From an uncultured Candidatus Saccharibacteria bacterium (lineage in GTDB: Bacteria > Patescibacteriota > Minisyncoccia > Phycocordibacterales > UBA918), in the NCBI GenBank assembly GCA_964402035.1, contig CAYOAM010000001.1, positions 179,558 through 243,557 on the forward strand: DNA of 64,000 nt, given 5' to 3'. Position 1 is the stretch's first letter, and every line of letters starts with the position of its first letter. Shown here piece after piece: positions 5,264 through 64,000 of the stretch. The notes below the pieces were generated by a model. That model ran no database searches and had not been told where the DNA came from. It was given only the letters and a program-made list of their open reading frames with translations. The position numbers and the translations under genes are program-made.

Positions 5264-5266
5264 CGT

Positions 5267-25586: not shown

Positions 25587-25591
25587 GTAGT

Positions 25592-25852: not shown

Positions 25853-25857
25853 TACGT

Positions 25858-27021: not shown

Positions 27022-27028
27022 ATTTAAG

Positions 27029-27700
27029 ATGAAAATTATACATAAAATTGCAAGCCGTATCCGACATCATTACGTTTTGTCAGCATTGTTGGTTAATTTG
27101 ATTCTCAGTATTCTACTGACTTGTATTTTACTTTTCGGTATACGTCTAACTCATGTGCTTTACCAAGCAGCCCTGTTAAATTTTGTTTTCTTGGAGTGCT
27201 TTATAAATTTTGTATTTATCACTTGGTATTTGTTTGGACGTGTATCAAAAATACTAAAATCAGGGCTTCTTTCGCTCATTATCCAATCCCTTAAATATGC
27301 TCTCTTATTTTTTATTGGGATTTGGAGTTTCTTTTTTATTTTTCTTTCACTCGTAGATTTTCATCGCCTCCTTAAGGATGGATATGACGGAAGTTACCTG
27401 CCCGTCCAAACTGTTACTATTGATGAAAATCAGAATATAGTCGTCTATCGAACAAACGGAGGTGCCACAACAGATTTTGGCGTTGAGATTCGAAGAGAGA
27501 AATACTTATCCCTTGGATTCAAATGGGTTAAAACACTTAGAGAGTATTATCATGTGAGCGATATTAAACTAAGTACTTTAAATACTTCTCAGGTCATGAT
27601 AGAAGAGGTAAAAGGTACCAGCCATGTGTATACCTCAAGCGAGGAAAAATGGTACGGCCCTCTCCCCGTGAGAGGTGAGGTAATTGATATTTTTCGTTGA
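27029..27700 (+). CDS. Candidate immunity protein for orphan CT2 (223 aa, multi-TM N-terminal half)
   Basis: Starts 8 nt after the CT2 stop. 5-6 TM helices in the first 110 aa, then a soluble domain. Confidence 0.45.
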   Translation: MKIIHKIASRIRHHYVLSALLVNLILSILLTCILLFGIRLTHVLYQAALLNFVFLECFINFVFITWYLFGRVSKILKSGLLSLIIQSLKYALLFFIGIWSFFFIFLSLVDFHRLLKDGYDGSYLPVQTVTIDENQNIVVYRTNGGATTDFGVEIRREKYLSLGFKWVKTLREYYHVSDIKLSTLNTSQVMIEEVKGTSHVYTSSEEKWYGPLPVRGEVIDIFR

Positions 27701-27737
27701 AACTAGACTAGAAACGGTAGAATGTAGAGAAATGGTG

Positions 27738-27756
27738 GAAATGGGGACAGGTACTT
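27738..27756. repeat. Degenerate REP-like copy (ggaaatggggacaggtac)
   Basis: Shares the ggaaatggggacagg core with the REP arrays flanking the RAYT gene. Confidence 0.4.
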
Positions 27757-28073
27757 TTTTAAAGAGACACAAGCGAGTGTTTCTTAGCAATAATATTTTT
27801 TGTAAAATCTGCTCAAATAGCCTAGCAAGCTAACCCATCGACAAGAAAGGCAGCACTACCACGAGATCCTATGCCCACACAGATCACTTAGGAAGTACGG
27901 TCGCTATCACCTCAAACACTGGAGCAGTCTCTCAAATACTTGAATACTACCCATATGGAGGTACCCGTATAGACCAGAAGTATGGAGCTACAAACCAACG
28001 CAATAGGTACGTTGGGCAGGACTATGACCAAGAAACGAATCTCAATTACCTGCAACAGAGATATCAAAATTCA

Positions 28074-28754
28074 GTGAATGGGCAGTTTATTTCTCAAGAC
28101 CCGGTGTTCCTAGACATAGGACTTAATACCAACGAGGGGAAGGTAGTGATGAGGAATCCGCAAGCAATGAACTCGTATAGTTATGCACAAAATAGTCCTT
28201 TGGTATTGAAAGATCCGAGTGGAAGGAGCGCTGCAGCCATAGGAGGCTTAGAAGGCCTAGCTGCGTTATCCGCACTTGTTGCTCCGGAAGTTGTTGTTCC
28301 GGTAGTGGCAGCAGTTGCAATTGTTACGACGGGGATTGTATTATATGAAAACGGAAAGCAGATTTGGATGGGACCAGTCCAAACTATCAATTTACCCCCA
28401 CCACCGATAGATCCTCTTGACCCGGGAGGTCCACCAAATTTCAAAGGACCAAAGTGGAAACAAGCAATTATTTGGACGACTATCGGAATTGGTGGTTTAG
28501 AGGGGGTACTTGAAAACTATCCAAAGGGAGGCAATTCGAATTCTACTAAACAATCAAACACTACAAATTCAACCAACTCAACTGCCAAATCTCCAACTTA
28601 TAATCAACCTTCTCCATACCAAAATAATCATCCCACTAATAATGACGCGGCATACAGTTTAATAAAGCAAGCTGAAAAAGCCATTGCTAATAAGGATTAT
28701 GGTGCTGCAAAAAAATACCTAAAGAACGCATCGAAAGCCTTAAATGGGAAGTAA
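28074..28754 (+). CDS. Orphan rhs-CT cassette 3 (start-less): an in-frame Rhs-core remnant begins at 27837 immediately after a TAA stop; third distinct C-terminal toxin domain
   Basis: Frame is open from 27837 (IDKKGSTTTRSYAHTDHLGSTVAITSNTGAVSQILEYYPYGGTRIDQ...QDPVFLD), about 80% nt identity to the main core. Only a GTG at 28074 is available as a start. The C-terminal domain is Gly/Pro/Asn-rich with a hydrophobic helix. Confidence 0.55.
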   Translation: MNGQFISQDPVFLDIGLNTNEGKVVMRNPQAMNSYSYAQNSPLVLKDPSGRSAAAIGGLEGLAALSALVAPEVVVPVVAAVAIVTTGIVLYENGKQIWMGPVQTINLPPPPIDPLDPGGPPNFKGPKWKQAIIWTTIGIGGLEGVLENYPKGGNSNSTKQSNTTNSTNSTAKSPTYNQPSPYQNNHPTNNDAAYSLIKQAEKAIANKDYGAAKKYLKNASKALNGK

Positions 28755-28803
28755 AATGTTTCTAAAAAAGCTCAGTAATAAATTAAACTTTAGGTAATAA
28801 TAT

Positions 28804-29067
28804 ATGGCTATATTCATGTTTTTCTTTTGGATCTCGCTGACCTTAATTTGTCTGTTTCTATCCAGAAAATATAAAGGGGGGCATTATAGAGAAGCATCAT
28901 ATTTTACAAGTGCAGCCTTACTATTTTATGTGTTTAAATATTTTGTTAATAACACAACTATTTTCTCACCCGAAACACTATCTCTTATTGAAAAAATAAA
29001 TTTTATATTTTGGATTATATGGGCGTCTTTATTTTTATATTTTGTGATAAAAAAGAAAATTTGGTAG
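28804..29067 (+). CDS. Small membrane protein (87 aa), immunity candidate
   Basis: Very AT-rich. 2-3 TM helices. Confidence 0.4.
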   Translation: MAIFMFFFWISLTLICLFLSRKYKGGHYREASYFTSAALLFYVFKYFVNNTTIFSPETLSLIEKINFIFWIIWASLFLYFVIKKKIW

Positions 29068-29111
29068 TTATCCATTTTTAATAAAGGACCATACAGGATA
29101 ATCTAAAAAGT

Positions 29112-29387
29112 ATGTCCGTACCCCTTGTATCTTTGCTTGCCTATCCAGTTCTTATCTTATTTGGAATTTATTACTGGAAAAAATATAACGATCCTTCAAT
29201 TCCTTGGTATTTGTTTCCCGTAATAGGACTTTTAGTATTGACCGTATCTCAATGGTTTTTAGGTACGAATTTTAACTTAAGTGAGGATGATCAAGCAATT
29301 GAATTTTTAATATTTACTGCTCTTAGGGTCTTAATGGGAGGGACACTTTTAATTGTATTCTTAATAAATTTTTTCAAGAAGAAATGA
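29112..29387 (+). CDS. Small membrane protein (91 aa), immunity candidate
   Basis: AT-rich. 3 TM helices. Ends in KKK. Confidence 0.4.
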   Translation: MSVPLVSLLAYPVLILFGIYYWKKYNDPSIPWYLFPVIGLLVLTVSQWFLGTNFNLSEDDQAIEFLIFTALRVLMGGTLLIVFLINFFKKK

Positions 29388-29405
29388 TTTTCGAAATCTT
29401 AAACC

Positions 29406-29768
29406 CTAGTTAATTTTAGTTTTAATTTGAAAAGTAATTTTGTCCATCTCTACATTTGATTGAGAATCGTGACTAGCCCTTAATCTTATTGGTACTGAAC
29501 CAGTGAGGATCACCTTGCCGTGGTCATAGCTGATGCTTTCTACAAAATCTATAAGGAACTTCCTTTTTGCTTTAAGGTCGATACTCCTTTCAAATCTTGC
29601 TCGTGTAGTCTCACAAAATATCCTTAAGTTCGCATCGATTATATCCTCATCGTGCAGGGTGGGTATTTGTTTGAGAAGTTCCTTTAAATCAAGGAAATGG
29701 ATCAGAAATGGGGACAGGGACAATACTTTAAACAAAGGAAATGGGGACAGGGACAATACTTTAAACAA
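29406..29768 (-). CDS. Hypothetical ORF whose N-terminal 30 codons are encoded by the REP repeats; probably a disrupted gene remnant
   Basis: The N-terminus MFKVLSLSPFPLFKVLSLSPF is the translation of the tandem REP units. No internal ATG except near the C-terminus. Confidence 0.2.
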   Translation of the reverse strand: MFKVLSLSPFPLFKVLSLSPFLIHFLDLKELLKQIPTLHDEDIIDANLRIFCETTRARFERSIDLKAKRKFLIDFVESISYDHGKVILTGSVPIRLRASHDSQSNVEMDKITFQIKTKIN

Positions 29769-29770
29769 AA
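29691..29770. repeat. Left REP-like array: 2.3 tandem copies of ggaaatggggacagggacaatactttaaacaaa (33-nt period)
   Basis: Seen directly. Inverted relative to the array at 30480-30554. Confidence 0.8.
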
Positions 29771-29788
29771 GTATTGCATAATATTGTC

Positions 29789-30457
29789 ATGCCTCGCCAA
29801 GCACGTGTTGCGGTGAAAGATGTGGTGTACCATGTCATCAATCGTTCCAATGGTCGAGCGAGGATATTCGAGAAAGACAGTGACTATCAGCATTTTGAGT
29901 CACCGCTCACCGAAGCCCGGGAACTAACAGATATGCGTATCCTTGCATACTGTATTATGCCCAACCATTGGCATCTTATACTCCATCCACGTTCAGACAC
30001 CAACCTTGCTGAATTTATGAGTTGGCTCACCACGACTCATGTCCGCCAGTATCGCACTCGCACGCAAAGTATTGGCTATGGTCACCTCTATCAAGATCGA
30101 TACAAATCATTTCCCGTTGAGACCAATGACTATTGCGCAACACTGATCCGCTACATTGAACAGAACCCATTGCGCGCTCGACTCATTCAAAGAGCCGAAG
30201 ACTGGCAATGGTCAAGTCTCTGGAGACGAGAGCAGGGAAGCGATGCACAGAAGAGGCTGCTTGCGGAGTTACCCACTGACCTTCCTGCAAACTATCTGCA
30301 GTCTGTGAATGAGATACTTAAACCTAAAATAATAGAAAATATTCGTTACTCGGTGAACAAAGGAAAACCATATGGCTCAGAAAGGTGGGTGAGTACCATG
30401 GTGGGTGACTTTGCATTAAGGTATACGCTTCGTGGTCCAGGTCGTCCGAAGAAATAG
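29789..30457 (+). CDS. REP-associated tyrosine transposase (RAYT, IS200/Y1 HUH family)
   Basis: HUH motif HWHLILH and catalytic Tyr region (YIEQNPLRARL..EDWQWSS). Aligns by eye with the E. coli RAYT YafM pattern. Maximal ORF from TTG 29774. Confidence 0.85.
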   Translation: MPRQARVAVKDVVYHVINRSNGRARIFEKDSDYQHFESPLTEARELTDMRILAYCIMPNHWHLILHPRSDTNLAEFMSWLTTTHVRQYRTRTQSIGYGHLYQDRYKSFPVETNDYCATLIRYIEQNPLRARLIQRAEDWQWSSLWRREQGSDAQKRLLAELPTDLPANYLQSVNEILKPKIIENIRYSVNKGKPYGSERWVSTMVGDFALRYTLRGPGRPKK

Positions 30458-51921: not shown

Positions 51922-52122
51922 TTCAGCCTCGCATATATTAAGAACACCACGAAACCCACGTGGCATGGGGTACGTACTCACGGTGTATTCTAACATTAAG
52001 AATATATTGTGTCAAGCTTTCTGTGAAAGTTCATAAGCTAGCGAACTTTTACGTTACCCTTAAACAAGAATTTATTATTTGTTATAGTGAACAAAGATCC
52101 ACTCAACCTCAGGGGTGTCCCT

Positions 52123-52311
52123 ATGCGCAAAGGTATTTGGTTGTTCTTTCTCTCAATCGGATGGATGTTCGTCCCATCTTTCTACGGCACCAATCGAAAA
52201 CGTCGCAGACGTAAAAAACCTCGATCGTGGGCCGCACTCGGAGCCGATGCACGCAAGCAGGAGGAAGATAGAAGGCGTAAAGAACGAGATTTCCTCAATC
52301 TGTTGACCTAA
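52123..52311 (+). CDS. Small secreted/membrane protein with a highly basic C-terminal tail (62 aa; maximal ORF from 52087)
   Basis: RBS AGGGG 9 nt before the ATG. A canonical terminator starts 2 nt after the stop. Confidence 0.35.
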   Translation: MRKGIWLFFLSIGWMFVPSFYGTNRKRRRRKKPRSWAALGADARKQEEDRRRKERDFLNLLT

Positions 52312-52312
52312 A

Positions 52313-52339
52313 GCCCTGTATTCCACAGGGCATTTTTTG
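52313..52339 (+). terminator. Rho-independent terminator (gccctgt-attcc-acagggc plus ATTTTTTG)
   Basis: Seen directly. Confidence 0.7.
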
Positions 52340-52440
52340 TATGATGAGTCAACATTTTACCGGCTCCTATGAGGATAAGATACCTGACGCCCTATTTGAA
52401 CCTTATTCCTGCAGTCTAATCGACTTATTTCACTCCTTCT

Positions 52441-52483
52441 TCGATAAATTGAAAGAGACCCCTTGATGTTATCGCAGGGTCTC
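52441..52483 (-). terminator. Minus-strand terminator (gagaccc...gggtctc hairpin plus T-rich tract) downstream of 52505-52750
   Basis: Seen directly. Confidence 0.4.
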
Positions 52484-52504
52484 GCGTCGATCGTATTTTT
52501 GGTT

Positions 52505-52750
52505 TCAGGATGCTGCAGTAGCGATCTGGGCGGCAACTGCCTGAGGATCAATCGCTGCTATAGCGACGGAATGATTCACCCATCCTTTGTCAACCGGATA
52601 GAGGGAGAGACACAACGTCATACCTTCATAGCTAGCTTCGACAGCCGTGATCGGTCGTGTGTATGTTTTTAGTGTTGCGGAGTGCGTCAGACCCCTACCC
52701 CCGACACGTAGAGCTAGGAGTGAAAATACGTAACCGTGCGAAGTGGACAT
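52505..52750 (-). CDS. Small hypothetical protein (81 aa)
   Basis: RBS AAAGGAG 8 nt before the ATG on the minus strand. Terminator downstream. Composition close to the genome average. Confidence 0.4.
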   Translation of the reverse strand: MSTSHGYVFSLLALRVGGRGLTHSATLKTYTRPITAVEASYEGMTLCLSLYPVDKGWVNHSVAIAAIDPQAVAAQIATAAS

Positions 52751-52996
52751 AGGGCATTCTCCTTTGTTGCTGACTCTTTTCTAATGGTAACATATTAGCG
52801 TGGATATGTCAAGTATAACGCTGAGTTGCATAACGCGTCTAAAATGCGGATAGATATGAGTAAACCAAAAAATGTGCCAGATACTTTTTTTTGACATCTT
52901 TTCTCTTCTTCCTTGGAAGTGACTGCATATGTCCCAAATGCTTGAATATGGTGAACAGTAAGATTGATGGTGGCATGCAAATGGAACCTTACTACA

Positions 52997-53034
52997 AAAC
53001 CCCTTGAACCAATGTAGGTTCAAGGGGTTTTAAG
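52997..53034. terminator. Bidirectional terminator (aaaaccccttgaacc-aatgta-ggttcaaggggtttt)
   Basis: Perfect 15-bp stem flanked by A and T tracts on both sides. Confidence 0.7.
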
Positions 53035-53047
53035 TTTGTAGAATTAA

Positions 53048-53422
53048 CTACAGAGGAATGTGCTTTGCGAAAGCGCCGATGAAGGGGAGCTCTTGCTGCT
53101 TGTTTTGGACTACGTTCACAATTCCGATGATTGAGAATACAAGTGTGGCAATGTTGACGAGTGAAATAACCATGTAACCGAGGCCGTAGTATGCCATTGA
53201 TCCAAGAACCATTGCGGCGATTTCAATCACAAATAGTACTGCTCCTTGGCGTACGTGAAAAAGTACAAAAGGATCATCTTTTCCCATCATATAAGCGACG
53301 ACGACAAGAATACTTAAATACGACATGACACCAAACAATACATTCTTTTGCTTTGGATCAAGGGGTGTACCTTGCGTTGGTGTTGCGGATGTTTGTTCTG
53401 GTCCTTTTGCTTGCTCGTCCAT
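53048..53422 (-). CDS. DUF4870-like small membrane protein
   Basis: NVLFGVMSYLSILVVVAYMMGKDDPFVLFHVRQGAVLFVIEIAAMVL follows the DUF4870 pattern. 3 TM helices. Confidence 0.55.
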   Translation of the reverse strand: MDEQAKGPEQTSATPTQGTPLDPKQKNVLFGVMSYLSILVVVAYMMGKDDPFVLFHVRQGAVLFVIEIAAMVLGSMAYYGLGYMVISLVNIATLVFSIIGIVNVVQNKQQELPFIGAFAKHIPL

Positions 53423-53588: not shown

Positions 53589-53855
53589 ATGCAGACTATT
53601 GTACTTGAAGAACTATCATCACCCGGGTGTCATAATTGCGCTGCATTTAAAGAGTTTTGGGAGACCATAAAAGGGGAGTGGCCCAATGTTGAGTTTAAAG
53701 AGATGAGCATTCTTGATCCACAGGGGCAGGAACTAGTCCAAAAACACCAGATTTTTGCCTCTCCAGGGATTATTCTCAATGGGGAGCTTTTTTCTACGGG
53801 AGGCGTCAACAAAGAAGATTTTGTTAAAAAATTAAAAGAATTATCAGGTTCATAA
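53589..53855 (+). CDS. Small thioredoxin/glutaredoxin-like protein (CxxC)
   Basis: SPGCHNCAAF CxxC motif in an 88-aa thioredoxin-fold-sized protein. Adjacent to a CcdA-like domain. Confidence 0.65.
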   Translation: MQTIVLEELSSPGCHNCAAFKEFWETIKGEWPNVEFKEMSILDPQGQELVQKHQIFASPGIILNGELFSTGGVNKEDFVKKLKELSGS

Positions 53856-53859
53856 ATAT

Positions 53860-56800
53860 ATGGCGGAACATCAACCCGTAGAAGCAACTGCGTCAGTCGA
53901 AATGCCCGCAAACCGCGCTCGCACGCTCCTCATCTTTGGTGCAATTAGTGTGTTTGCAGCCATGGTGTTTGGACTGCTGTACCTCTTTGTTATTGCACCG
54001 GCTGCACCTGGTAGTAGTCTCGGTTGGTTCCTGTTCTCATTTGCAACGGGTATTACGATGATCATCATGCCCTGCACTCTGCCGTTGGCATTTGTGATTG
54101 TGCCGCTATCGATGGGTAAGGGGCTTGTGAAGGGGATCTCGATGGCACTAGCTTTTGGGCTCGGTATCACGATCACGCAGAGTCTCTACGGTGTTGCAGC
54201 TGCTGTTTTGGGAAAGCTCGCTATCGGAGCGTTGGGTGCGGATCTTGAAGTCGTCAAAAACTGGGTGTATTTGGTTGCGGGTATCTTTGCGCTCGTTTTT
54301 GCTTTGAGTGAAATTGGTCTCATGAAGTTCCGCATGCCGACCTATACGGGTGCTGCACCAGCTTTTATTCAGCAACGCCGTGATGCTTTTAAAGCATTTT
54401 TGTTGGGGCTTTTCTTAGGAAACATTGGTATTGGTTGTCCACATCCTGCTACACCGTTATTGCTCATAGAAGCAGCATCAAGTGGCGATGTGCTGTATGG
54501 GTGGCTTTTGTTCCTCGTACATGCAAGTGGCCGTGTCTTGCCGCTCTTGTTGTTGGCATTTCTTGCTATTTTGGGAGTCAACGGTCTTAATTTCTTGGTT
54601 ACAAAAAAAGACGCTGTCGAACGAGCGACTGGTTGGGCGATGGTGTTTGTAGCAGGATTTATCCTTACTTTAGGTCTATTCACGCACGCATGGTGGGTTA
54701 ACTCAGGAATTCACACGATGTTGGAAAAAGTGACGCAGGAAAGTTACTTCAACGCACGATTTAACGACATGCTCAATTCGGCTGTTGCTCATAATCATGG
54801 TCTTGAGACAGGTACAGCAATGTTTGGCTTGCCGTTGTGGCTTGGAAACTGGTTCTTGGTTTCGGTATGGATACTACCTATCTGGTGGTGGTGGTTTAGA
54901 AAGCGTAAGTCATTGATGCAGAGTCCTGTTTTTCGTATCCAGGCACTTGAAGGAAGAATCGATGAACTTGAGAAAGAACGCCGACAGGTGGAGTCTATGG
55001 TAGCGCTTGATGAGGCTGAAGTTTCTTTTGATCTCAAAGTACACGAGGCCGAGATTGATCGATTGGAACAAATTCGACGAGCTGAGGAGGAGAAGGTGCA
55101 CTATTCAGAGAAGGGAGTATTGCAAAGCCCCATTGCTCAAACATATGAGATGAAGATGCTCTATACCGTCCGTAATTATCTCTTTGTTCTTTCAGTATTT
55201 ATTGTACTTGTCTTCGCGTACTTTTTGCCGACCAACTTCTATCTTGCGTCTATTTCTGGTATGGGTGGCCACGCTCATACACCAGTGGCTGTCTCAACAA
55301 GTACTACTCAGGCACTCATCCCGTTTTCGACTGATACTGCAAATCTTCCCGATGCGACATTGACACAAACAATCACCCTACAAGACGGTGGTACCTACAA
55401 GGTCAGTGCGGGGTATGTGAAAAGACAGTTAGGAAATCGTGTGCTGCGTATGATGGCGTACAACGGTTCGGTTCCGGGACCATTTATCCATGCTCCAGAA
55501 GGATCGACCGTGAACATTGAGTTCACCAATAACACCGACATCGATCAGACGATACATTCACACGGTGTGCGTGTTGACAATCTTTCAGATGGAGTCCCTG
55601 GGGTGACACAAGTGGCCGTTAAGCCCGGTGAGACGTACACCTACACTATTAACTTTAAGGATGTTGGAGTCTATTGGTTCCACCCGCATACGCGCGATGA
55701 TTATGGGCAAGAGTTAGGATTGTATGGAAATTATATTGTTGAGCCTTCTGATGAAAAATATTATTCACCTGTCAATCGAGAAATTCCACTCGTCATCGAT
55801 GACATATTGATTGAGAACGAGCGTATTGCTCCTTTCTATAAAGAATATACCGATCACGCGCTCTTGGGACGATTTGGAAATGAATTTTTGGTGAATGGCG
55901 CTGAAAACTTCACGACCAATGTAAAGATGGGTGAGGTAGTGCGCTTTATGGTGACGAACGTATCCAATGCTCGCACCTACAACCTCTCAATTCCTGGTCT
56001 CAAGATCAAACTTGTCGGGTCTGATGCAGGAAAATATGAGCGTGAGACATCTGTAGATTCTTTGCTACTCTCACCGGCAGAACGCGCGATTGTTGAAGTA
56101 TATTTTGAAAAGCCAGGTGTATTCACGCTGACGCACACAGATCCTTCAAACTCCGTAAAGCTTGCAACTTTTGGTGTATCGAGTGAAGAACGGGCAGACG
56201 TATCGTATGCAAAGGAATTTGCAGTCATGCGAACTGATACTTCAGCGACCACAACATATGCAGCAATACGCGCTATGCTTCCTGCTCTCCCACAAAAGAA
56301 TGTATTGATGACGGTGGATCTTGGTATGAATGCGGCAGCAATGAACCATGGTGCGCACGCACACGCCATGCCAGGTATGATGACCAGTGCAAGTACGAGC
56401 AATCCGTCAGGCATTCAGTGGGATGATGTAGGAAACACTGACACCATCAATACGACACAAAATGTGACGTGGAAATTGGTAGATTTGGAAAATAATCTCG
56501 TCAATGATGCCATCAACTGGAAGTTCAAGGTAGGGGAATTCGTGAAAGTGCGCTTCACGAATGACAAAATGGCGATGCATGTGATGCAGCATCCCATACA
56601 CTTCCACGGACAACGCTTTGTCGTACTGGCAAGGAATGGAGTACCCAATGACAACCTTGTCTGGAAAGATACAGCTTTGGTATTACCTGGCGAGACTGTC
56701 GATCTTGTTGTTGATATGAGCAATCCAGGTCTCTGGATGGCGCATTGTCATATCGTAGAGCACCTTCACGGCGGCATGATGCTGAACTTCCGCGTTGAAG

Positions 56801-57591
56801 ATCCAACGGGGTATGCAACAGGAGATGAATTTCGTGCGACCCTACCAAAAGTTGTGCCGATACCAAAATCTACAAACGGAATGTCGGGTATGGCAGGTAT
56901 GCCGGGAATGGGTGGCATGATGGGTACTGGGTTGTCGTTTGGTATGAGCACGTCGAGTATTTCATTTGCCATGGTCCTGCCTGAGAACAATTACACCGCT
57001 ATCCCTGAACGTGTATTTGTTCAAATGGGTAAAAAGCAAAATGTCGCCTTTGAGCTTGTGGATCGCAGCAATACGCCGATTCAATTGAGTAAAGATGTGC
57101 CACGCGCACTCTCAGTAACATTTGTAAAAAGCGATGATAGGGTAAAACTTGAAACGTACATCGGCAACACTGCATTTGATACGGTTGCAGCTCCTGCTGC
57201 TATGCCCATGGTCCCAAATGGTGCGCCGTTTGATGAATCTATGCCACACAGTCACCCAACCTCAATGTTCCCCTCACTCATACCTGTTGCCTCTGCGCAT
57301 GGGACAGTGAATGACGGACATGCGGGAGTCGCACCACTCACATACACCTACGCAGTGCCTGTAGTGTTCCCAGAAAAAGGAGTGTACCGAGCATTCGTCC
57401 AGTTTTTGCCGGTTGGTGGAAGCGAGATTCGTACTGTGTCTTTCAACATGGAAGTGGGCGCATCTGGATGGTCAGTAGACAATTACGGTTGGTCAAAAAC
57501 AAAGAAATGGTGGACATTATTGATCATCTCACTCATTACAATGTTGCCGCTGATTTACGGCGTGCGACGCTATATCGGTAACGAAAAATAA
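53860..57591 (+). CDS. Fusion protein: CcdA/DsbD-like thiol-disulfide transmembrane domain + coiled coil + multicopper oxidase (three cupredoxin motifs, Met-rich segment) + C-terminal TM anchor
   Basis: CcdA-like domain with Cys in two TM helices (IIMPCTLPLAF and GIGCPHPATP). MCO motifs HSHG, WFHPH, HPIHFHGQRF and HCHIVEHLHGGMM. Met-rich MSGMAGMPGMGGMMG segment. C-terminal TM helix WWTLLIISLITMLPLIY. Confidence 0.75.
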   Translation: MAEHQPVEATASVEMPANRARTLLIFGAISVFAAMVFGLLYLFVIAPAAPGSSLGWFLFSFATGITMIIMPCTLPLAFVIVPLSMGKGLVKGISMALAFGLGITITQSLYGVAAAVLGKLAIGALGADLEVVKNWVYLVAGIFALVFALSEIGLMKFRMPTYTGAAPAFIQQRRDAFKAFLLGLFLGNIGIGCPHPATPLLLIEAASSGDVLYGWLLFLVHASGRVLPLLLLAFLAILGVNGLNFLVTKKDAVERATGWAMVFVAGFILTLGLFTHAWWVNSGIHTMLEKVTQESYFNARFNDMLNSAVAHNHGLETGTAMFGLPLWLGNWFLVSVWILPIWWWWFRKRKSLMQSPVFRIQALEGRIDELEKERRQVESMVALDEAEVSFDLKVHEAEIDRLEQIRRAEEEKVHYSEKGVLQSPIAQTYEMKMLYTVRNYLFVLSVFIVLVFAYFLPTNFYLASISGMGGHAHTPVAVSTSTTQALIPFSTDTANLPDATLTQTITLQDGGTYKVSAGYVKRQLGNRVLRMMAYNGSVPGPFIHAPEGSTVNIEFTNNTDIDQTIHSHGVRVDNLSDGVPGVTQVAVKPGETYTYTINFKDVGVYWFHPHTRDDYGQELGLYGNYIVEPSDEKYYSPVNREIPLVIDDILIENERIAPFYKEYTDHALLGRFGNEFLVNGAENFTTNVKMGEVVRFMVTNVSNARTYNLSIPGLKIKLVGSDAGKYERETSVDSLLLSPAERAIVEVYFEKPGVFTLTHTDPSNSVKLATFGVSSEERADVSYAKEFAVMRTDTSATTTYAAIRAMLPALPQKNVLMTVDLGMNAAAMNHGAHAHAMPGMMTSASTSNPSGIQWDDVGNTDTINTTQNVTWKLVDLENNLVNDAINWKFKVGEFVKVRFTNDKMAMHVMQHPIHFHGQRFVVLARNGVPNDNLVWKDTALVLPGETVDLVVDMSNPGLWMAHCHIVEHLHGGMMLNFRVEDPTGYATGDEFRATLPKVVPIPKSTNGMSGMAGMPGMGGMMGTGLSFGMSTSSISFAMVLPENNYTAIPERVFVQMGKKQNVAFELVDRSNTPIQLSKDVPRALSVTFVKSDDRVKLETYIGNTAFDTVAAPAAMPMVPNGAPFDESMPHSHPTSMFPSLIPVASAHGTVNDGHAGVAPLTYTYAVPVVFPEKGVYRAFVQFLPVGGSEIRTVSFNMEVGASGWSVDNYGWSKTKKWWTLLIISLITMLPLIYGVRRYIGNEK

Positions 57592-57592
57592 T

Positions 57593-58075
57593 ATGAACAA
57601 ATATTTAGTCTTAGGTATTGTACTCATCGCGATCGTGGTAGGCGGTATTGTTTGGAAACAGTACGGTGCATCGGATGTAAATAAGGCGATGGACACCGGT
57701 GTCGTGCGTGAGATTACGGTGATATCAAAAAAGCTTGAATGGCGTTTTGATCCTGCAGTCATTGCGGTTGAGCAGGGTGATCGAGTCAAATTGAAAGTAA
57801 TCAATGAAGATGATTTTGATCACGGTGTTGCTATTGATGCGTTTGGTGTATCGCAACGTCTACCGGCGAATGCCACTATCGATATTGAATTCGTAGCGAC
57901 AAAATCAGGTGAGTTTCCATTCTATTGCTCAGTCTCGTGTAGTGACAGTAAATCAACTGGAAATCTTCCCGGAGGAGTTGTGCAAACAGGACCGTTTGCC
58001 GGTACCGTCCAAGGACACTTCGATCAAATCGGCAAATTTGTCGTATCGCTCGCAAAAACGGTGACGGGACAATAA
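57593..58075 (+). CDS. Cupredoxin-like copper-binding protein, membrane-anchored
   Basis: N-terminal TM helix. FDHGVAIDAFGV...GEFPFYCSVSC matches the cupredoxin_1 pattern (GEYEFHC..C). Confidence 0.5.
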   Translation: MNKYLVLGIVLIAIVVGGIVWKQYGASDVNKAMDTGVVREITVISKKLEWRFDPAVIAVEQGDRVKLKVINEDDFDHGVAIDAFGVSQRLPANATIDIEFVATKSGEFPFYCSVSCSDSKSTGNLPGGVVQTGPFAGTVQGHFDQIGKFVVSLAKTVTGQ

Positions 58076-58099
58076 TATCAATATTAATAACGGAGCTAT

Positions 58100-60433
58100 A
58101 TGACAAAAATTGTTTTGAAGGTGAAGGGAATGCATTGCGCATCGTGTGCGATTCTCATAGACAAATTGCTTTCAAAACAGGCGGGTGTTGTGAAATCTTC
58201 AACGAGCTATGGTGCGCAGAAGGTAGCACTGGAATTTGATGAAGCAAAAATCACGCTTCCAAAGATCGATGAGTTCGTAAACAAGCTTGGATACGATGTT
58301 GTTCGTCCCGAAGAAGAAACCGGCTCAATAGAAGATGAAGAAGCGGTTGAACAAAAGCAACTCACGCTTGCGCGTCGCCGTGTGATCGCATCCTTTGCAA
58401 TTGCGGCTCCTATCATCGCCTACTACATGGGTGTGCACATGTTCAATTTGCCGCATGTGCATGCAATCTTTGGTATTGACCTCAACTACATCTACTGGAT
58501 ACTCTCGACTCCGATCCAGTTTGTGATTGCGTGGCCGTTTTATCGCAATGCATATTCAGCGATACGTATTGGGGCGGCGAACATGGATGTACTTGTGGTC
58601 TTGGGTACAACTGCAGCGTACCTCTACAGTATGATCGGTTTTCTTTTCTTCAACATCGATCATCCATTCTGGGAAAGTTCAGCGGCATTGATTTCATTTA
58701 TCCTCATGGGTCGCTATGTTGAGGTTGTTGCAAAAGGCAAGGCTTCAAGTGCCATCAAAGAGCTTTTGAAACTCGAAGCAAAAGAGGCGCATGTTGAGCG
58801 TGATGGAAAAGAAGTCACGATACCACTCCAAGAACTTGTTGAGGGGGACGTCGTAATTGTAAAACCAGGCGAGAAGATCCCCGTTGATGGACAGATTGTG
58901 TTTGGAGAGTCACATATTGATGAGAAAGTGGTGACGGGTGAATCGTTCCCAGTCAAACGCGTCATTGGCGATCAGGTTATTGGTGCAACCGTAAATCTTG
59001 AAGGGCGTTTCAAGTTTAAAGCGCTCAAGGTTGGAAAAGATACCCTCCTCAATCAGATTGTACGCATGGTTGAAGAGGCGCAAGCGACACGTGCTCCTGT
59101 ACAAGACTTAGTTGATAAAGTGAGTGAGTACTTTGTGCCTGCTGTCGTCATACTTTCAGTACTTACCTTTGTTGGTTGGGTTTTTGTGGCAGATCTGCCG
59201 GTTCGAGCAGGACTCATGCGCATGATCGCTGTACTCGTGATCTCATGTCCATGTGCCATGGGTCTTGCAACACCGACGGCACTCGTTGTAGGTATTGGTC
59301 AGGCTGCGCGATACGGCATCATCCTCAAAGGTGGAGAGGCGCTTGAGAAAGCATACAAAGTGACCTGTATCGCATTTGATAAAACGGGAACGCTTACGAT
59401 TGGAAAGCCGATTGTGACCGATATGATCATGATCTCAAAGACGGTGACCGAAAAAGACGCCGCAATCCTCGCTGCTTCAGCTGAGATGGGATCAGAGCAC
59501 CCACTTGCTCGTGCCGTCATTGAGAAGGGAAAATCTATGGGTGAAGTTATTGATCCAAAGAAATTTGATGCAATACAAGGTATGGGTATTCATGCAGTCA
59601 TACCGTACAACAAGAAAGATGTTGACGTTATCATCGGCAATCTTGCATACATGAAGAAGCTTGAGATTGACACGTCGGTGCATCAAAAAGAGCTTGAAAG
59701 ACTGCAAACAGAAGCAAAGACAACCGTATTTTTGCTAATAAACAACGAACCGGTTGCAATTATTGCGATGGCAGATGCACTCAAGCCATTTGCCGTTGAA
59801 GCAATCGCCGAACTCAAGCGCATGGGCAAGGAGATCATCATGATTACTGGCGACAACCAACGTACAGCTGACGCTATTGCAAAACTCGTTGGTATTGACC
59901 GTGCTCTGGCTGAAGTCTTACCACAAGACAAAGCAAATGTGGTGAAGAAACTTCAAGAAGAGGGCAAGGTTGTGGCGATGGTGGGAGATGGTATTAATGA
60001 TTCTCCTGCACTCGCCCAATCAAACCTCGGTATTGCCATAGGATCTGGAACCGATGTTGCTATTGAGACAGGAGAAGTCGTGTTGGTGAAAGACGACCTT
60101 CGAGATGTGGCCGTTGCTATCCAGCTTTCAAGTAAGACTATTAAGAAAGTATGGCAAAATCTTTTCTGGGCGTTTATCTACAATGTTCTTGCAATACCAG
60201 TCGCGGCGGGTGGACATCTGCTCCTCACACAAACATCATTTGGAATTGCTGCAGGATGGGTCGTGGCAATACAACAGAAGTTTGGTGGAGCAGGTCAGAT
60301 ATTCTTCAACCTCTCTCAAGCAACGTTGCGTCCAGAAATCGCCGGTTTTGCTATGGCATTTAGCTCAGTCTCGGTGGTGCTCAACTCTATGCTCTTGCGC
60401 CGCTACGTACCACCCGCAGAACGAAAGAAATAG
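58100..60433 (+). CDS. copA: Copper-translocating P1B-type ATPase
   Basis: HMA domain GMHCASCA. TM CPC motif SCPCAMGLATP. DKTGTLT. GDGINDSPAL. Confidence 0.9.
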   Translation: MTKIVLKVKGMHCASCAILIDKLLSKQAGVVKSSTSYGAQKVALEFDEAKITLPKIDEFVNKLGYDVVRPEEETGSIEDEEAVEQKQLTLARRRVIASFAIAAPIIAYYMGVHMFNLPHVHAIFGIDLNYIYWILSTPIQFVIAWPFYRNAYSAIRIGAANMDVLVVLGTTAAYLYSMIGFLFFNIDHPFWESSAALISFILMGRYVEVVAKGKASSAIKELLKLEAKEAHVERDGKEVTIPLQELVEGDVVIVKPGEKIPVDGQIVFGESHIDEKVVTGESFPVKRVIGDQVIGATVNLEGRFKFKALKVGKDTLLNQIVRMVEEAQATRAPVQDLVDKVSEYFVPAVVILSVLTFVGWVFVADLPVRAGLMRMIAVLVISCPCAMGLATPTALVVGIGQAARYGIILKGGEALEKAYKVTCIAFDKTGTLTIGKPIVTDMIMISKTVTEKDAAILAASAEMGSEHPLARAVIEKGKSMGEVIDPKKFDAIQGMGIHAVIPYNKKDVDVIIGNLAYMKKLEIDTSVHQKELERLQTEAKTTVFLLINNEPVAIIAMADALKPFAVEAIAELKRMGKEIIMITGDNQRTADAIAKLVGIDRALAEVLPQDKANVVKKLQEEGKVVAMVGDGINDSPALAQSNLGIAIGSGTDVAIETGEVVLVKDDLRDVAVAIQLSSKTIKKVWQNLFWAFIYNVLAIPVAAGGHLLLTQTSFGIAAGWVVAIQQKFGGAGQIFFNLSQATLRPEIAGFAMAFSSVSVVLNSMLLRRYVPPAERKK

Positions 60434-60493
60434 ATCCTTGAACTCACGTCAAAGTGGTTTATACTAAGATAGTAACGAAATAATATATACCGT

Positions 60494-60709
60494 ATGAGTA
60501 CACTAAAATTGGACATCGTAGGCATGCACTGTGGTGGATGCGCAACTGGGATTCAAATGTTGACCGAAGGGATGGATGGAGTTTCGTCATCGTTTGTCGA
60601 TTATGACGCAAAAAAGGGAACCATAGAATACGATGAAGCGAAGATTAAGCCAGATGCGATTATCAAAGAGATAGCGACGTTGGGATATACCGCGACCGCA
60701 GGCCAATAG
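60494..60709 (+). CDS. copZ: Copper chaperone (HMA domain)
   Basis: GMHCGGCA metal-binding motif. 71 aa. Confidence 0.8.
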   Translation: MSTLKLDIVGMHCGGCATGIQMLTEGMDGVSSSFVDYDAKKGTIEYDEAKIKPDAIIKEIATLGYTATAGQ

Positions 60710-60719
60710 AGCATACGCT

Positions 60720-61265
60720 ATGGACCTCTATGCACTACTTATAATTGGTCATATCATCGGCACTATTTTGGGTGTCGGTGGGGCCACCTATATTGAAATT
60801 CATCTCAATATGGCTCTTGCAGATGGCAAGATGGATGCGTATGAGAAAGGAGTTATGGCAAAAGATTTTCTCTTAACGCGCATCGGCCTTGTTCTTTGTT
60901 TCCTCACGGGTCTTGGATTTGTATGGATCTACTACTCACACAACCAACTTGGTCGTCTTGCAGACGGTGTGTTTTGGGCAAAGATGGCCATCATTTTGAT
61001 ATTGATCATTAATGCAGTACTTCTTCATAAGCACAAAATAGGCCTCTATTGGGGTAGTGCATTCTCTTTCATATCATGGTGGGGAGCGATGCTCTTGGGC
61101 ACCTTTTTGACACAAAACATAAAGATTTTGCCTGCAAACGACGTCCTTTCGTTTTTTGTCATCCTTGCTGTCTATGGGGTCATCGTCTGCATTGGAGCAT
61201 GGGTACTCCATAAAATACGAGAATTTACTAAACTACCAGTTCCACTCGTACCTCCAATAGCATAA
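60720..61265 (+). CDS. Integral membrane protein (about 6 TM helices) of unknown function, co-located with the copper genes
   Basis: Hydropathy only. Confidence 0.45.
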   Translation: MDLYALLIIGHIIGTILGVGGATYIEIHLNMALADGKMDAYEKGVMAKDFLLTRIGLVLCFLTGLGFVWIYYSHNQLGRLADGVFWAKMAIILILIINAVLLHKHKIGLYWGSAFSFISWWGAMLLGTFLTQNIKILPANDVLSFFVILAVYGVIVCIGAWVLHKIREFTKLPVPLVPPIA

Positions 61266-61313: not shown

Positions 61314-62114
61314 TTGAGCGTCTTTTTTATGTTTAATACTGCACTTGCAGCCACCGAAGAAGTGGCAACAAAAGGGCTTTCAATACACCTCGCTCCGGAG
61401 GTTCTCTCAACTATTGGGGGGGTGCCGATAACGAATACCTTACTCACAGCGTGGGTAGTCGTTGTTGCGCTTATTGTGTTGACCTATCTATTTCGTTCGG
61501 CATATGCGCTCATACCTTCAAAAACACAGGTGCTTGTGGAAGCTGTAGTGGGCGGTGCATTTGAGTATGTAGCTGAGACTTTGGAAAGTAAGGAGCTCGC
61601 GCAGAAATTTTTTCCGGTCATCATGACCATGTTTATCTTCATTCTAGCACTCAATTGGGTCGGGTTACTGCCAGGGGTCGATAGTATCGGCTTTTATAAA
61701 GAACATAACGGACATGAAGTTTTTGCACCGTATTTGCATCCCGCAAATACTGATCTCAATGTGACCTTTGCATTTGCCATCATAGCGTTTGTAACTATTG
61801 AGGCTGCGGGTGTTATGCTTCTCGGATTCTTGAAGTATGGAGGTAAGTTTGTTACGTTTAAGTCGCCACTTGCATTCGTGATTGGCATTATTGAGCTCAT
61901 AGGCGAAATCGCCCGATTGATCTCATTTTCATTTCGGCTCTTTGGCAATATTTTTGCGGGAAAGACCTTGTTGTTGGTCGCAATGTTTTTCGTCCCATTT
62001 GTGGTACCGGTGCCTATTTTGGCATTTGAGGTGTTCGTGGGCTTTATACAAGCACTCGTCTTTTCAGTGCTTATATTATTCTTCATTAAGCTTGCGATTA
62101 GTGAGCCGCACTAG
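61314..62114 (+). CDS. atpB: F0F1 ATP synthase subunit a
   Basis: Conserved Arg in LISFSFRLFGNIFAGKTLL, C-terminal helices, position before the c subunit. Confidence 0.85.
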   Translation: MSVFFMFNTALAATEEVATKGLSIHLAPEVLSTIGGVPITNTLLTAWVVVVALIVLTYLFRSAYALIPSKTQVLVEAVVGGAFEYVAETLESKELAQKFFPVIMTMFIFILALNWVGLLPGVDSIGFYKEHNGHEVFAPYLHPANTDLNVTFAFAIIAFVTIEAAGVMLLGFLKYGGKFVTFKSPLAFVIGIIELIGEIARLISFSFRLFGNIFAGKTLLLVAMFFVPFVVPVPILAFEVFVGFIQALVFSVLILFFIKLAISEPH

Positions 62115-62127
62115 TGAATAGAGATGA

Positions 62128-62415
<288 letters not shown>

Positions 62416-62576
62416 ACAATCTCATTTGCATGATAACTTCGTTGCGAAGTGTCGATGATTTGGTCATCGTATACCACATACGCCTCCCAAACCATCTTCT
62501 TCGCGCCTCGTTCTCATGCAAATGATACTTGTTTAGGTAATATTCCTAGATCTAGAGGACACTTTACAAAAACACT

Positions 62577-63026
62577 ATGCAAGAAATAATAACTGCATTT
62601 GGTATCGACTGGCGACTAATCGCCATCCAGATATTTAATTTTGTCGTGCTACTTTTAGCACTTTGGTATTTCTTGTATACTCCGGTGCTTGCAATGATTG
62701 AAAGACGACGTTCTACCATAGAAGGTGGGGTGCGAGACGCAGAACTTGCTGCACAAAAATTGGCAGCAGCTCAATCGGAACATGCACAGGTACTCAAAGC
62801 TGCACATGCTGAAGCCGTAGAGGTTGCGCGCCGCGCAAAGGATCATGCTGATATAAAAGCAGCTGAACTCGTGCATGCTGCGGAAGAAAAGAGTAGACGC
62901 ACTATGGAAGAAGCGAAACGTGAAGGAGAGCTTTTGAAAGAACGACTCTACAACGAGAGTGAAGCACAGATTGCGCAGACGGCGTTGCTTGCAGCAGAAA
63001 AAATCCTAAAGGAACGCGCATCATAA
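62577..63026 (+). CDS. atpF: F0F1 ATP synthase subunit b
   Basis: N-terminal TM helix and a long Ala/Glu/Lys-rich helix. Position in the operon. Confidence 0.7.
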   Translation: MQEIITAFGIDWRLIAIQIFNFVVLLLALWYFLYTPVLAMIERRRSTIEGGVRDAELAAQKLAAAQSEHAQVLKAAHAEAVEVARRAKDHADIKAAELVHAAEEKSRRTMEEAKREGELLKERLYNESEAQIAQTALLAAEKILKERAS

Positions 63027-63033
63027 GATATAT

Positions 63034-63417
63034 ATGAAAGCGGAAGTTTACGGAGAGGCACTTTATCAAGTACTTAGTACTGATGGTGTTTTTGAGAGTA
63101 CGATCCAAAATCTCAAAGCAATCTTAAAAAAAAATGGGCACCGATCCCTCTATGGACAGATACTCCGTGATGTTGAGCGTCGCTTTTTGGAGCAACAAAG
63201 AATGGAGACCGCTTCAGTCATCGTTTCAAAAAAAGAAGACTACCAAGTGCACAAAAAAGAGATTACCGCACTACTAGCAGAATTCGCCGTAACGGAGATG
63301 ATGCTGGAGACAGACGAACAGATAGTAGGAGGGTTCATTGTTCGAGGCAAGGGAAAAGAGTATGATCGGAGTTACAAAAAGTCGCTCCTGTCTATCTATC
63401 GAGCATTAACAGCATAA
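63034..63417 (+). CDS. atpH: F0F1 ATP synthase subunit delta (short form)
   Basis: C-terminal IVGGFIVRGKGKEYDRSYKKSLLSIYRAL matches the delta/OSCP C-terminal motif. Position before atpA. Confidence 0.6.
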   Translation: MKAEVYGEALYQVLSTDGVFESTIQNLKAILKKNGHRSLYGQILRDVERRFLEQQRMETASVIVSKKEDYQVHKKEITALLAEFAVTEMMLETDEQIVGGFIVRGKGKEYDRSYKKSLLSIYRALTA

Positions 63418-63429
63418 TCACCTACATAT

Positions 63430-64000
63430 ATGAGTAACTCAATCATAGAACAAATAAAGAAAGAGATCGCTTCTCTTGACACCACCGCACATACCGAGGA
63501 GATTGGGCGAGTGATATCTGTGGGTGATGGTGTCGCAGAAATTGAAGGGCTCAAGAATGCACAAATGTCAGAGATGGTAATGTTTGATGTTGGCGAAAAG
63601 AAGAGCTTGCAAGAAAGCATGCAGCACGCGTCGGTACTTTTTGGGCTTGTGTTGAATCTCGAGGAGCATATGGTAAAAACGGTGGTGTTGGGTGATACCA
63701 ATCGTATTACCGAGGGGATGACGGTGCGACGCACAGGCACCTTGCTCAATATACCAGTCTCGGATGCGATTATTGGTCGTGTGGTAAATCCTTTGGGTGA
63801 GATGCTCGATGGAAAGGGAGCTATTAAGCCTGATCGACAGATGCCTATTGAGCGCATTGCGTACGGGGTGATGGACCGATCATCGGTAAATACACCAATA
63901 CATACGGGTATTAAAGCTATCGATGCCATGATACCAATCGGCCGCGGACAGCGTGAATTGATCATTGGTGATCGCGCAACCGGAAAGACCACTATAGCAA
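63430..64000 (+). CDS. atpA: F0F1 ATP synthase subunit alpha, 3'-partial (runs off the window)
   Basis: N-terminal beta-barrel (RVISVGDGVAEIEGL) and Walker A start GDRATGKTTIA at the window edge. The overlapping minus ORF 63396-63992 is spurious. Confidence 0.85.
   Translation, partial: MSNSIIEQIKKEIASLDTTAHTEEIGRVISVGDGVAEIEGLKNAQMSEMVMFDVGEKKSLQESMQHASVLFGLVLNLEEHMVKTVVLGDTNRITEGMTVRRTGTLLNIPVSDAIIGRVVNPLGEMLDGKGAIKPDRQMPIERIAYGVMDRSSVNTPIHTGIKAIDAMIPIGRGQRELIIGDRATGKTTIA

Follow-up and report, generated by a model that had tools for sequence, protein, structure and literature searches.

A 64,000-nucleotide (nt) stretch of contig CAYOAM010000001.1, assembled from an uncultured Candidatus Saccharibacteria bacterium and called here, at its full length, the window, contains a cassette of copper-related genes in which one open reading frame (ORF) joins a membrane module resembling the DsbD/CcdA thiol-disulfide transporters to a multicopper oxidase (MCO). 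The locus raises the question of whether such a fusion is real and, if it is, what a thiol module has to do with copper enzymes. We found that the conserved core of the system consists of a small thioredoxin (Trx), the module and a cupredoxin, usually together with CopA and CopZ. The explanation that we put forward, and to which we give an even chance of being correct, is a compact extracytoplasmic service for copper proteins, in which the reducing power of Trx would be passed through the module and would keep cysteine-liganded copper sites in a state in which they can receive metal.

The fusion and its exchangeable partners

An identical protein of 1243 amino acids (aa) was found on five independently assembled contigs (NCBI, ENA and Logan), the longest of which is 453 kb. 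A search of 5.8 billion proteins revealed more than 70 clusters (90% identity) that share the fusion architecture in a single ORF, with 45-68% identity, 98-100% coverage and lengths of about 1200-1300 aa; they derive from metagenome-assembled genomes of Paceibacteria, Parcubacteria and Patescibacteria, and most carry a precomputed DsbD_TM match. The fusion junction, which comprises two transmembrane (TM) helices, TM7 and TM8, and the linker between them, is conserved among the relatives. Because of the five identical copies and the diverged orthologous clusters, an assembly error or frameshift joining separate ccdA and MCO genes was rejected, and the fusion seen in an earlier reading of this DNA from sequence only (referred to below as the sequence-only reading) is genuine. 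Its product is a multi-domain envelope protein of a Patescibacterium resembling Paceibacteria or Parcubacteria. The observation that could speak for wrongly joined genes is that in some genomes separate neighbouring genes encode the module and a copper domain (L036, L045, L046, L060, L075, L083 and L084); set against the contigs, the clusters and the conserved junction, it leaves this explanation a negligible probability.

The neighbourhood of the module was compared in 80 species-level loci, the best 80 of 202 matching stretches in 185,579 species-representative genomes. Nearly all of them are labelled as Patescibacteria groups, and many are cut by contig ends. Despite this, homologs of the small Trx were present in 71 of the 80 loci, of the cupredoxin in 71, of CopA in 64 and of CopZ in 54. 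The six-gene order of the window is repeated in genomes in which the fusion protein is only 53-56% identical and the flanks are different. The module family as a whole is small, with 534 relatives (E<=1e-3) detected when all of 1.84 billion representatives were scanned with HMMER.

The module is fused to a three-domain MCO (with or without an immunoglobulin (Ig)-like domain), to a two-domain MCO, to NirK or to two tandem YtkA-like domains. The tandem YtkA-like architecture was observed in 40/80 loci, the three-domain MCO in 12/80 (six of these being of the window type, with the Ig-like domain), the two-domain MCO in 5/80 and NirK in 1/80; nine loci have the module plus linker only, and in 13 the module is alone or split from its partner. 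The description of the locus as centred on the MCO had therefore to be abandoned, since at least four partners, the MCO among them, can take the same place beside the module and the window type accounts for only 6/80 loci. In the split form the module gene lies immediately upstream of the copper-domain gene, in several cases with a 4-nt overlap. The NirK-type partner was identified in family member P0130 (TIGR02376, E = 2.6e-68) and also in L088 (7114-9396). The tandem YtkA-like partners are rich in His and often have His-rich C-terminal tails, comparable to that of B. subtilis CtaK (PMC9145763). The fused partners add essentially no Cys, and no CxxC is present in the fused domains.

Separate NirK and MCO genes adjoin some of the unfused modules (L036, L047). 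Since NirK of Patescibacteria is found fused to the module or next to it, the nirK genes that Danczak et al. described in 2017 in Parcubacteria together with a cupredoxin (PMC5581439) may belong to this system.

Some further arrangements were observed around the module. Small membrane proteins of the DoxX/MauE type are fused to its N-terminus in P0142 and P0144 (Pfam DoxX, 1.5e-4), and genes for such proteins adjoin the system in L007 (10283-10708) and in the JGI 3300071358 locus. A distant 351-aa member, P0173 (L091, 5700-9623), contains GCPNP and ends in the His-rich tail GGGHQHH; it is flanked by a gene for a CsoR-type metal-sensing repressor, two small Trx/glutaredoxin-like genes and a CzcB-like gene, and on account of these neighbours the metal-linked context reaches beyond the core clade. 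Another distant relative, P0222, carries a DsbD-like core with (G/C)CPDP fused to two rhodanese domains and is TsoB-like.

Membrane module, thioredoxin and CuA-type cupredoxin

Comparison of the window module with NCBIfam gave matches to TsoB (1.7e-9) and DsbD (8.4e-7). The Pfam family DsbD_TM (PF02683) was matched by 28 of 30 scanned relatives, the best at 5.9e-11, and divergent relatives scored 44-48 bits against a cut-off of 27.1 (E down to 1.1e-12). Judged by these profile matches, the module belongs to DsbD/CcdA at the superfamily level, through intermediates. The CcdA/DsbD-like assignment of the sequence-only reading is upheld in this way by the relatives and is weaker for the window protein itself. 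The minimal CcdA architecture of six TM helices only was not found in the window protein, for which ten helices are predicted (hydropathy and AlphaFold2), including the extra TM0, TM7, TM8 and TM9.

Two cysteines are located in the membrane helices of the module: C72 within MPCTLP (nt 54073-54075) and C193 within GCPHP (nt 54436-54438). In the AlphaFold2 model TM1 is broken at residues 70-73 and TM4 at residues 187-196, exactly at these two positions. None of the 119 intact hits lacks either Cys; PC[TVSA]LP occurs in 119 and GCPHP in 118 of them, and the Cys-Cys spacing is 120-123 residues, mostly 121. Most members of the wider family keep both Cys as well. The whole fusion protein contains three Cys, the third being C963, a ligand of the type 1 (T1) copper of the MCO. 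A segment at the outer face of the module carries the invariant H276, H285, H311 and H313. All four of these were kept in 144/168 members with two Cys, and two at most in 9/9 members with no Cys, kinship between the sequences being ignored in both counts. Across partner types the module is 55-82% identical, which is higher than the conservation of the partners themselves.

The 71 Trx homologs all contain CxxC and the cis-Pro motif, all start with M..(I/V).LE.L.SPGCxxC, and signal or TM segments are absent from all of them. The absence of such segments in 71/71 places Trx in the cytoplasm, on the donor side of a DsbD-type relay, and the mini-Trx is presumed to be the electron donor to the module. 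An exported Trx acting as acceptor was also considered and was ruled out, as no hydrophobic segment is present in any of the 71; the longer ORFs reflect calls of upstream starts. DsbA/DsbB-like oxidants are encoded in related genomes, and because of these oxidants exposed Cys pairs would need a reductive counter-pathway. With two membrane Cys in every intact hit and a CxxC mini-Trx beside 71/80 loci, the link to thiol-disulfide exchange suggested in the sequence-only reading is plausible.

The conservation of the module and of its Trx bears on two other explanations. The cassette might serve ordinary copper detoxification by CopA, CopZ and a CueO-like oxidase, the module being an anchor or scaffold in a cell without periplasm and its thiol chemistry being incidental. 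The set of CopA, CopZ and MCO mirrors CopA and CueO of E. coli, the MCO inserts are rich in Met and His, and the existence of Cys-less versions of the module implies that the fold can persist without redox Cys. However, these versions occur outside copper contexts; no other part of the fusion proteins is as conserved as the module, whose Cys, Pro and His motifs are invariant whatever the partner type, and a dedicated Trx is linked to it in 71/80 loci. A single TM helix would moreover be enough for anchoring, and TM8 and TM9 are already there. We consider this explanation quite improbable.

It could also be proposed that the module is a conduit or insertase for copper, leading from the two membrane Cys and H195 to the outer His cluster and from there into the copper domain of the fusion. 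The module is never found without copper-binding domains fused or linked to it, GCPHP of the close clade is a CPH-like motif, the four outer-face His largely co-vary with the Cys, and the wider LysE/DsbD superfamily includes metal transporters. Against this, members of the wider family have Asn where GCPHP has H195, and their YtkA-like partners are the same; exported Cu(I) is already supplied by CopA; and the conserved cytoplasmic partner is a CxxC Trx and not a metallochaperone, CopZ being less constant (54/80 loci). Because the Cys motifs are extremely conserved, a Trx is dedicated to the module and Asn replaces H195 in the wider family, both the anchor and the conduit are less likely explanations, and the conduit is very improbable. 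A more limited idea, that an intramembrane Cys2-His site for Cu(I) is a family-wide trait, is weakened by the same replacement.

The third member of the core is the cupredoxin. In the window its ligand pattern is H77-x34-C112-x3-C116-x25-H142-x2-Q145. The pattern DH[GA]-x34/35-C-x3-C was found in 72/73 homologs, the sole exception being truncated by a contig end, and a distal H-x2-(M/Q/H) is located 3, 11 or about 26 residues further on. The shortest cupredoxins (CSVPCGEGHYQQ) have the exact spacing of CuA, and the cupredoxin of L093 has the textbook CSELCG...H..M; in the window protein there is a 22-residue loop insertion and Q is present in place of M. A profile of 17 cupredoxin sequences aligned end-to-end with the CuA domain of P. 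stutzeri NosZ (542-636; E = 2.8e-12), with H, C, C, H and M all aligned, and it matched the CuA domains of subunit II of cytochrome c oxidase (COX2) at 1.9e-10 to 3e-7. By the sequence definition of CuA the protein is a CuA-type cupredoxin; it had been described as cupredoxin-like, which is correct as far as it goes, and its ligand pattern and the alignment with NosZ and COX2 make CuA-type the more exact term. Most homologs have exactly two Cys. As the only conserved extracytoplasmic protein with a Cys pair, the cupredoxin is a better candidate client of the module than the MCO. Its database relatives form 1,255 clusters named 'cupredoxin domain-containing', 'plastocyanin' or hypothetical, and the present data flag more than 1,200 such clusters as probable CuA-type proteins.

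A variant of the cupredoxin was noted in loci of the Lloydbacteria type (L022, L028, L029, L047, L054 and L061), in which the module is unfused. The CuA cupredoxins of these loci are longer, at 180-245 aa, carry a further conserved pair of Cys (ICVHKTPGDRVC) and have a long tail rich in Pro, Ser and Thr.

In cytochrome c oxidase (COX) and in NosZ electrons enter at CuA, and the partner cupredoxin, with its complete set of CuA ligands, could therefore point to an electron chain free of quinones and cytochromes. In such a chain electrons would pass from NAD(P)H through Trx reductase, the mini-Trx, the Cys of the module and CuA to the T1 copper of MCO or NirK and finally to O2 or nitrite, providing fermentative Patescibacteria with an external electron sink or with a detoxifier of O2 or nitrite. 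The conserved triad of Trx, module and cupredoxin would suit this role. So would the fusion of the module to three T1-copper oxidoreductases that need an external donor (three-domain MCO, two-domain MCO and NirK), the separate NirK and MCO genes beside unfused modules, and the position of the outer-face His near the Cys pair with which they largely co-vary. Danczak et al. (2017) had to assume that electrons reach the Parcubacteria cupredoxin 'by an unknown means' (PMC5581439). On the other hand, the YtkA-like domains found in 40/80 loci are non-catalytic and nine loci have no partner, the passage from a two-electron dithiol to a one-electron copper centre has no precedent known to us in the family, and the co-conservation of CopA and CopZ indicates copper trafficking. 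The Met/His inserts of the MCOs fit Cu(I) as the substrate, in which case no protein donor is required. In either role, we think the chain rather unlikely.

Relatives of the module that lack the Cys provide a natural experiment. P0149 (L093, L094), a divergent member in which both Cys are present, forms a bare triad of Trx, module and CuA cupredoxin, and neither CopA nor CopZ is nearby. Of the three Cys-less modules that were examined, P0143, P0147 and P0187, the first two are 39-43% identical to P0149. At the three Cys-less loci no cupredoxin was found in any reading frame, and neither CopA nor CopZ was found; the cupredoxin is lost together with the Cys pair. All three loci are syntenic, with a NUDIX neighbour 46-53% identical and the same GTPase, response-regulator and DsbB genes in the flanks.

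In the copper-protein service that we favour, CopZ and CopA, judged by the families to which they belong, would export Cu(I), and the Met/His-rich and YtkA-like segments would capture it outside. The mini-Trx would reduce C72 and C193, which would then present reducing power at the outer face beside the His cluster; the module may also hold copper as Cu(I). The reduced state of Cys ligands would thereby be preserved for metallation, the main candidate being C-x3-C of CuA and the next, possibly, the T1 Cys of the fused enzyme. In the assembly of CuA, TlpA keeps the Cys of CuA reduced and CcdA relays Trx electrons outward (PMC9145763); the module would do the work that TlpA performs downstream of DsbD/CcdA, without a Trx-fold intermediary. 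The fused MCO may act as a tethered oxidase of the CueO/laccase type, probably as a cuprous oxidase given its Met/His insert. The sequence-only reading had suggested a membrane-tethered Cu(I) oxidase linked to disulfide exchange: the tether is retained here and the link remains plausible, but the MCO is not favoured as the main client.

Several points weigh against the copper-protein service. We know of no precedent for a client reduced directly by a CcdA-type module, and at the level of the cassette no extracytoplasmic Trx-fold acceptor was found, its only Trx being cytoplasmic. The window module stayed below the threshold in Pfam, and a Foldseek search with its model returned no solved homolog (best E 0.1). 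An outside location of the cupredoxin domain is weakly favoured by the short basic N-tail and the neutral C-flank, and the cupredoxin profile has a distant match (E 0.029) to S. pneumoniae CupA, which faces the cytoplasm. Since the three Cys-less loci are syntenic, the loss of the Cys pair and of the cupredoxin may have been a single event. In L090 a Cys-less module (4138-5505), in which Cys is replaced by Ser and all four outer His are lost, stands beside a Trx with intact CxxC (CVSC; 3837-4121); the retention of Trx where the cupredoxin and copper genes are gone is unexplained by a thiol relay. It is equally unexplained what a free CuA cupredoxin would do physiologically in an organism that has neither cytochrome oxidase nor NosZ.

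Anatomy of the locus and surrounding DNA

Hydropathy and flanking charges, together with an AlphaFold2 model covering aa 1-350 (predicted local distance difference test (pLDDT) 80.8), were used to predict the topology of the fusion protein. The CcdA domain had been expected to have its N-terminus outside; the prediction is the opposite, placing the N-terminus inside and TM0 ahead of the CcdA core, which is followed by TM7, a cytoplasmic linker and TM8. The 100-aa loop between TM7 and TM8 contains 17 K/R and 19 D/E and is probably coiled-coil-like and cytoplasmic; a homologous segment is present in standalone 'module+coil' proteins. About 755 residues are predicted to lie outside after TM8. The predicted arrangement, tethered to the membrane at both ends with the oxidase outside, agrees with the sequence-only reading. 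An ORF check confirmed the six plus-strand ORFs of the cassette, which are separated by gaps of 1-60 nt (Table 1).

Table 1. Genes of the copper cassette and parts of the fusion protein in the window
Feature	Position (nt)	Strand	Description
Mini-thioredoxin (Trx)	53589-53855	+	88 aa; SPGCHNC, cis-Pro ASPG; Pfam Thioredoxin_3 E 9.8e-8
Fusion protein	53860-57591	+	1243 aa, uninterrupted ORF
Membrane module	53860-54885	+	aa 1-342: TM0, six-helix DsbD/CcdA-like core, TM7
Charged helical linker	54886-55170	+	aa 343-437; starts RKRK, predicted cytoplasmic
TM8	55171-55239	+	aa 438-460; hydropathy 2.31; predicted to return the chain outside
Three-domain MCO	55366-56805	+	aa ~503-982; predicted extracytoplasmic; Pfam, NCBIfam and PDB matches
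Ig-like beta-sandwich domain	56992-57459	+	aa ~1045-1200; AlphaFold2 core pLDDT >90
C-terminal TM anchor	57496-57576	+	aa 1213-1239, then basic tail RRYIGNEK (predicted inside)
Cupredoxin	57593-58075	+	160 aa; membrane-anchored, CuA-type; Pfam Cupredoxin_1; NCBIfam NosZ C-terminus 1.2e-11
CopA	58100-60433	+	Cu(I)-exporting P1B-type ATPase; N-terminal HMA domain, CPC motif
CopZ	60494-60709	+	HMA copper chaperone; MHCGGC; Pfam HMA 1.9e-13
Polytopic membrane protein	60720-61265	+	181 aa; accessory cassette member

In the oxidase part, Pfam identified Cu-oxidase_3, Cu-oxidase and Cu-oxidase_2 at aa 529-981 (E = 7e-27, 6e-13 and 7e-31, respectively). All four copper motifs are present: HSHG at 566, WFHPH at 606, HPIHFHG at 911 and HCHIVEHLHGGM at 962. 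The 12 ligand positions (H566, H568, H608, H610, H911, H914, H916, H962, C963, H964, H968 and M973) were invariant in 87 fusions, and the insert between MCO domains 2 and 3 contained on average 5.3 Met and 5.5 His per about 79 aa in the same set, so that the copper-ligand motifs and the Met-rich segment reported from the sequence are well founded. Met-rich stretches are located at aa ~820-840 and 1007-1030, and a Met/Gly-rich linker at aa ~1007-1035 precedes the Ig-like domain. A PDB search with the MCO gave laccases and CueO as the top matches, and the NCBIfam model for CueO (NF008205) was matched at 1.7e-44, with 152.6 bits against a cut-off of 525. By these matches the protein is a true three-domain MCO but not an ortholog of CueO.

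The Ig-like domain bears a disordered Met/His-rich loop in the AlphaFold2 model, and a fold search with this domain returned only generic Ig, filamin and Rib domains. It aligns with the terminal domain of the tandem YtkA-like fusions, and cross-matches of the C-terminal domain (CTD) with YTKA2 were obtained with phmmer. The Pfam YtkA family (PF13115) was matched at E<=1 by 8 of 30 family members (best 4.8e-5), these being the fusions with two such domains. The Ig-like domain of the window protein gave no match to it, and YtkA identity for this domain is unsupported by Pfam; the resemblance to YtkA holds for the relatives and may extend to the CTD of the window protein.

CopA scored well above the cut-offs of two family models (TIGR01511, 564 bits against 397; TIGR01525, 606 against 346) and contains the metal motifs SCPCAMG and MHCASC. 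The 181-aa membrane protein gave no family match in Pfam or NCBIfam and no convincing alignment with the DoxX/MauE-like neighbours of other loci. It was found in 9/80 loci, directly 3' of CopZ also in L002 and L004, and has the conserved motifs LGVGGAT.IE and YWGSAFSF.SW.

An F-type ATP synthase operon (atpB, atpE, atpF, atpH and atpA; 61314-64000, plus strand) begins about 50 nt past the copper cassette. The same adjacency was seen in L004, with one gene between, and was absent in L002. Just upstream of the locus, 51996-53048 is a region of about 1 kb without a long ORF, containing short overlapping ORFs only. At 53000-53027 there is a strong terminator-like structure, an 11-bp GC-rich hairpin with a T-tail, which draws only sub-threshold Rfam matches; in the window as a whole and in the ORF-poor stretch at 52-53 kb, Rfam models detected tRNA-Ala only, the remaining matches being sub-threshold and at this hairpin. 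A scan for promoters and terminators of the operon was uninformative, as promoter-like sites were fewer than in shuffled sequences and terminator-like sites about equal in number. No paralogs of any domain were found by tblastn elsewhere in the window. The GC content drops from about 0.46-0.50 to 0.37-0.40 over 24000-30000 of the window, and the GC skew changes sign at about 20-26 kb; these changes may mark an island of foreign DNA or a strand switch.

Significance and relation to known systems

In a literature search, mostly of freely accessible papers, neither the fusion nor the triad of Trx, module and CuA cupredoxin was found described, in line with the sequence-only reading, in which the fused architecture was not recognised as a described one. 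A machine annotation exists at JGI ('FtsP/CotA-like multicopper oxidase.../cytochrome c biogenesis protein CcdA'), and because MCO/CcdA proteins are already annotated there, the architecture is unstudied rather than unseen. The cassette is widespread within one phylum and unstudied.

To our knowledge, DsbD-family proteins are understood as always passing electrons to a Trx-fold protein. Here a lineage-wide DsbD variant is wired by fusion and operon to copper proteins, namely a CuA cupredoxin, MCOs, NirK and YtkA-like domains. If the module supports maturation of copper sites, the system would represent a compact alternative to assembly by TlpA, Sco and PCuAC in cells without a periplasm. If it is an electron chain, it would explain the electron supply to NirK and oxidases of Patescibacteria (PMC5581439) and would represent a quinone-free, respiratory-like sink in which a thiol-based transmembrane chain is used instead of quinones and cytochromes. 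The system is small and testable, with an 88-aa Trx, a module of about 350 aa, a cupredoxin of about 145 aa and defined Cys and His targets.

Among known proteins, those of the DsbD/CcdA/ScsB group (DsbD of E. coli, CcdA of B. subtilis and R. capsulatus, ScsB of Salmonella and Caulobacter) share with the module a homologous DsbD_TM core, the location of Cys in TM1 and TM4 within Pro-rich motifs and the probable use of a cytoplasmic Trx as donor; as in ScsB ('suppressor of copper sensitivity'), there is a tie to copper. The spacing of the two Cys is 121 here and 122 in E. coli DsbD (C163/C285; PMC3322552). Unlike these proteins, the module has no outside Trx-fold acceptor in its cassette and is fused to cuproenzymes or copper-binding domains. 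It also differs in the extra TM0, TM7 and TM8, the cytoplasmic linker, the GCP(H/N)P motif, the outer-face His cluster and the dedicated mini-Trx. The rhodanese/DsbD fusions of the TsoB type, which gave the best NCBIfam match of the module, likewise have a DsbD-like core on a domain that is not a Trx; however, their partner and chemistry concern sulfur or selenium, their motif is (G/C)CPDP, and they have no copper context.

The oxidase part resembles CueO of E. coli, which is likewise accompanied by CopA and CopZ, and the laccase-like MCOs of bacteria in its three cupredoxin domains, its T1, T2 and T3 ligands, the insert before domain 3 and the linkage to CopA and CopZ. In contrast to CueO, it falls far short of the family cut-off, has no Tat or Sec signal, is anchored by TM helices at both ends and is fused to the module and to the Ig-like domain. 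A polytopic membrane module fused to extracytoplasmic copper domains is known from YcnJ of B. subtilis (CopC-CopD-YtkA), one of these domains being of the YtkA type and implicated in the assembly of CuA (PMC13344008). As its membrane part, however, YcnJ has the copper importer CopD, which is not DsbD-like; it has no thiol relay, and the flow of copper is opposite. CupA of S. pneumoniae is, like the cupredoxin of the cassette, a small N-terminally anchored cupredoxin with a Cys-based site of the binuclear type, encoded beside CopA; its ligands are Cys and Met, without H...C-x3-C...H-x2-M, and the cassette described here contains a classical CopZ as well.

The pathway of CuA assembly (TlpA, Sco, PCuAC/CtaK(YtkA) and a P1B-ATPase) is similar in combining a thiol reductant, chaperone-like domains, a Cu(I) exporter and a CuA acceptor, and in being opposed by oxidants, which are DsbA/DsbB-like in the related genomes. 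The lineage of the window is generally without a respiratory chain, in which it differs from the hosts of that pathway. TlpA, Sco and PCuAC are absent here, the components are fused and encoded in an operon, and the putative acceptor is a free cupredoxin of 130-160 aa, whereas in the known pathway it is COX subunit II or NosZ.

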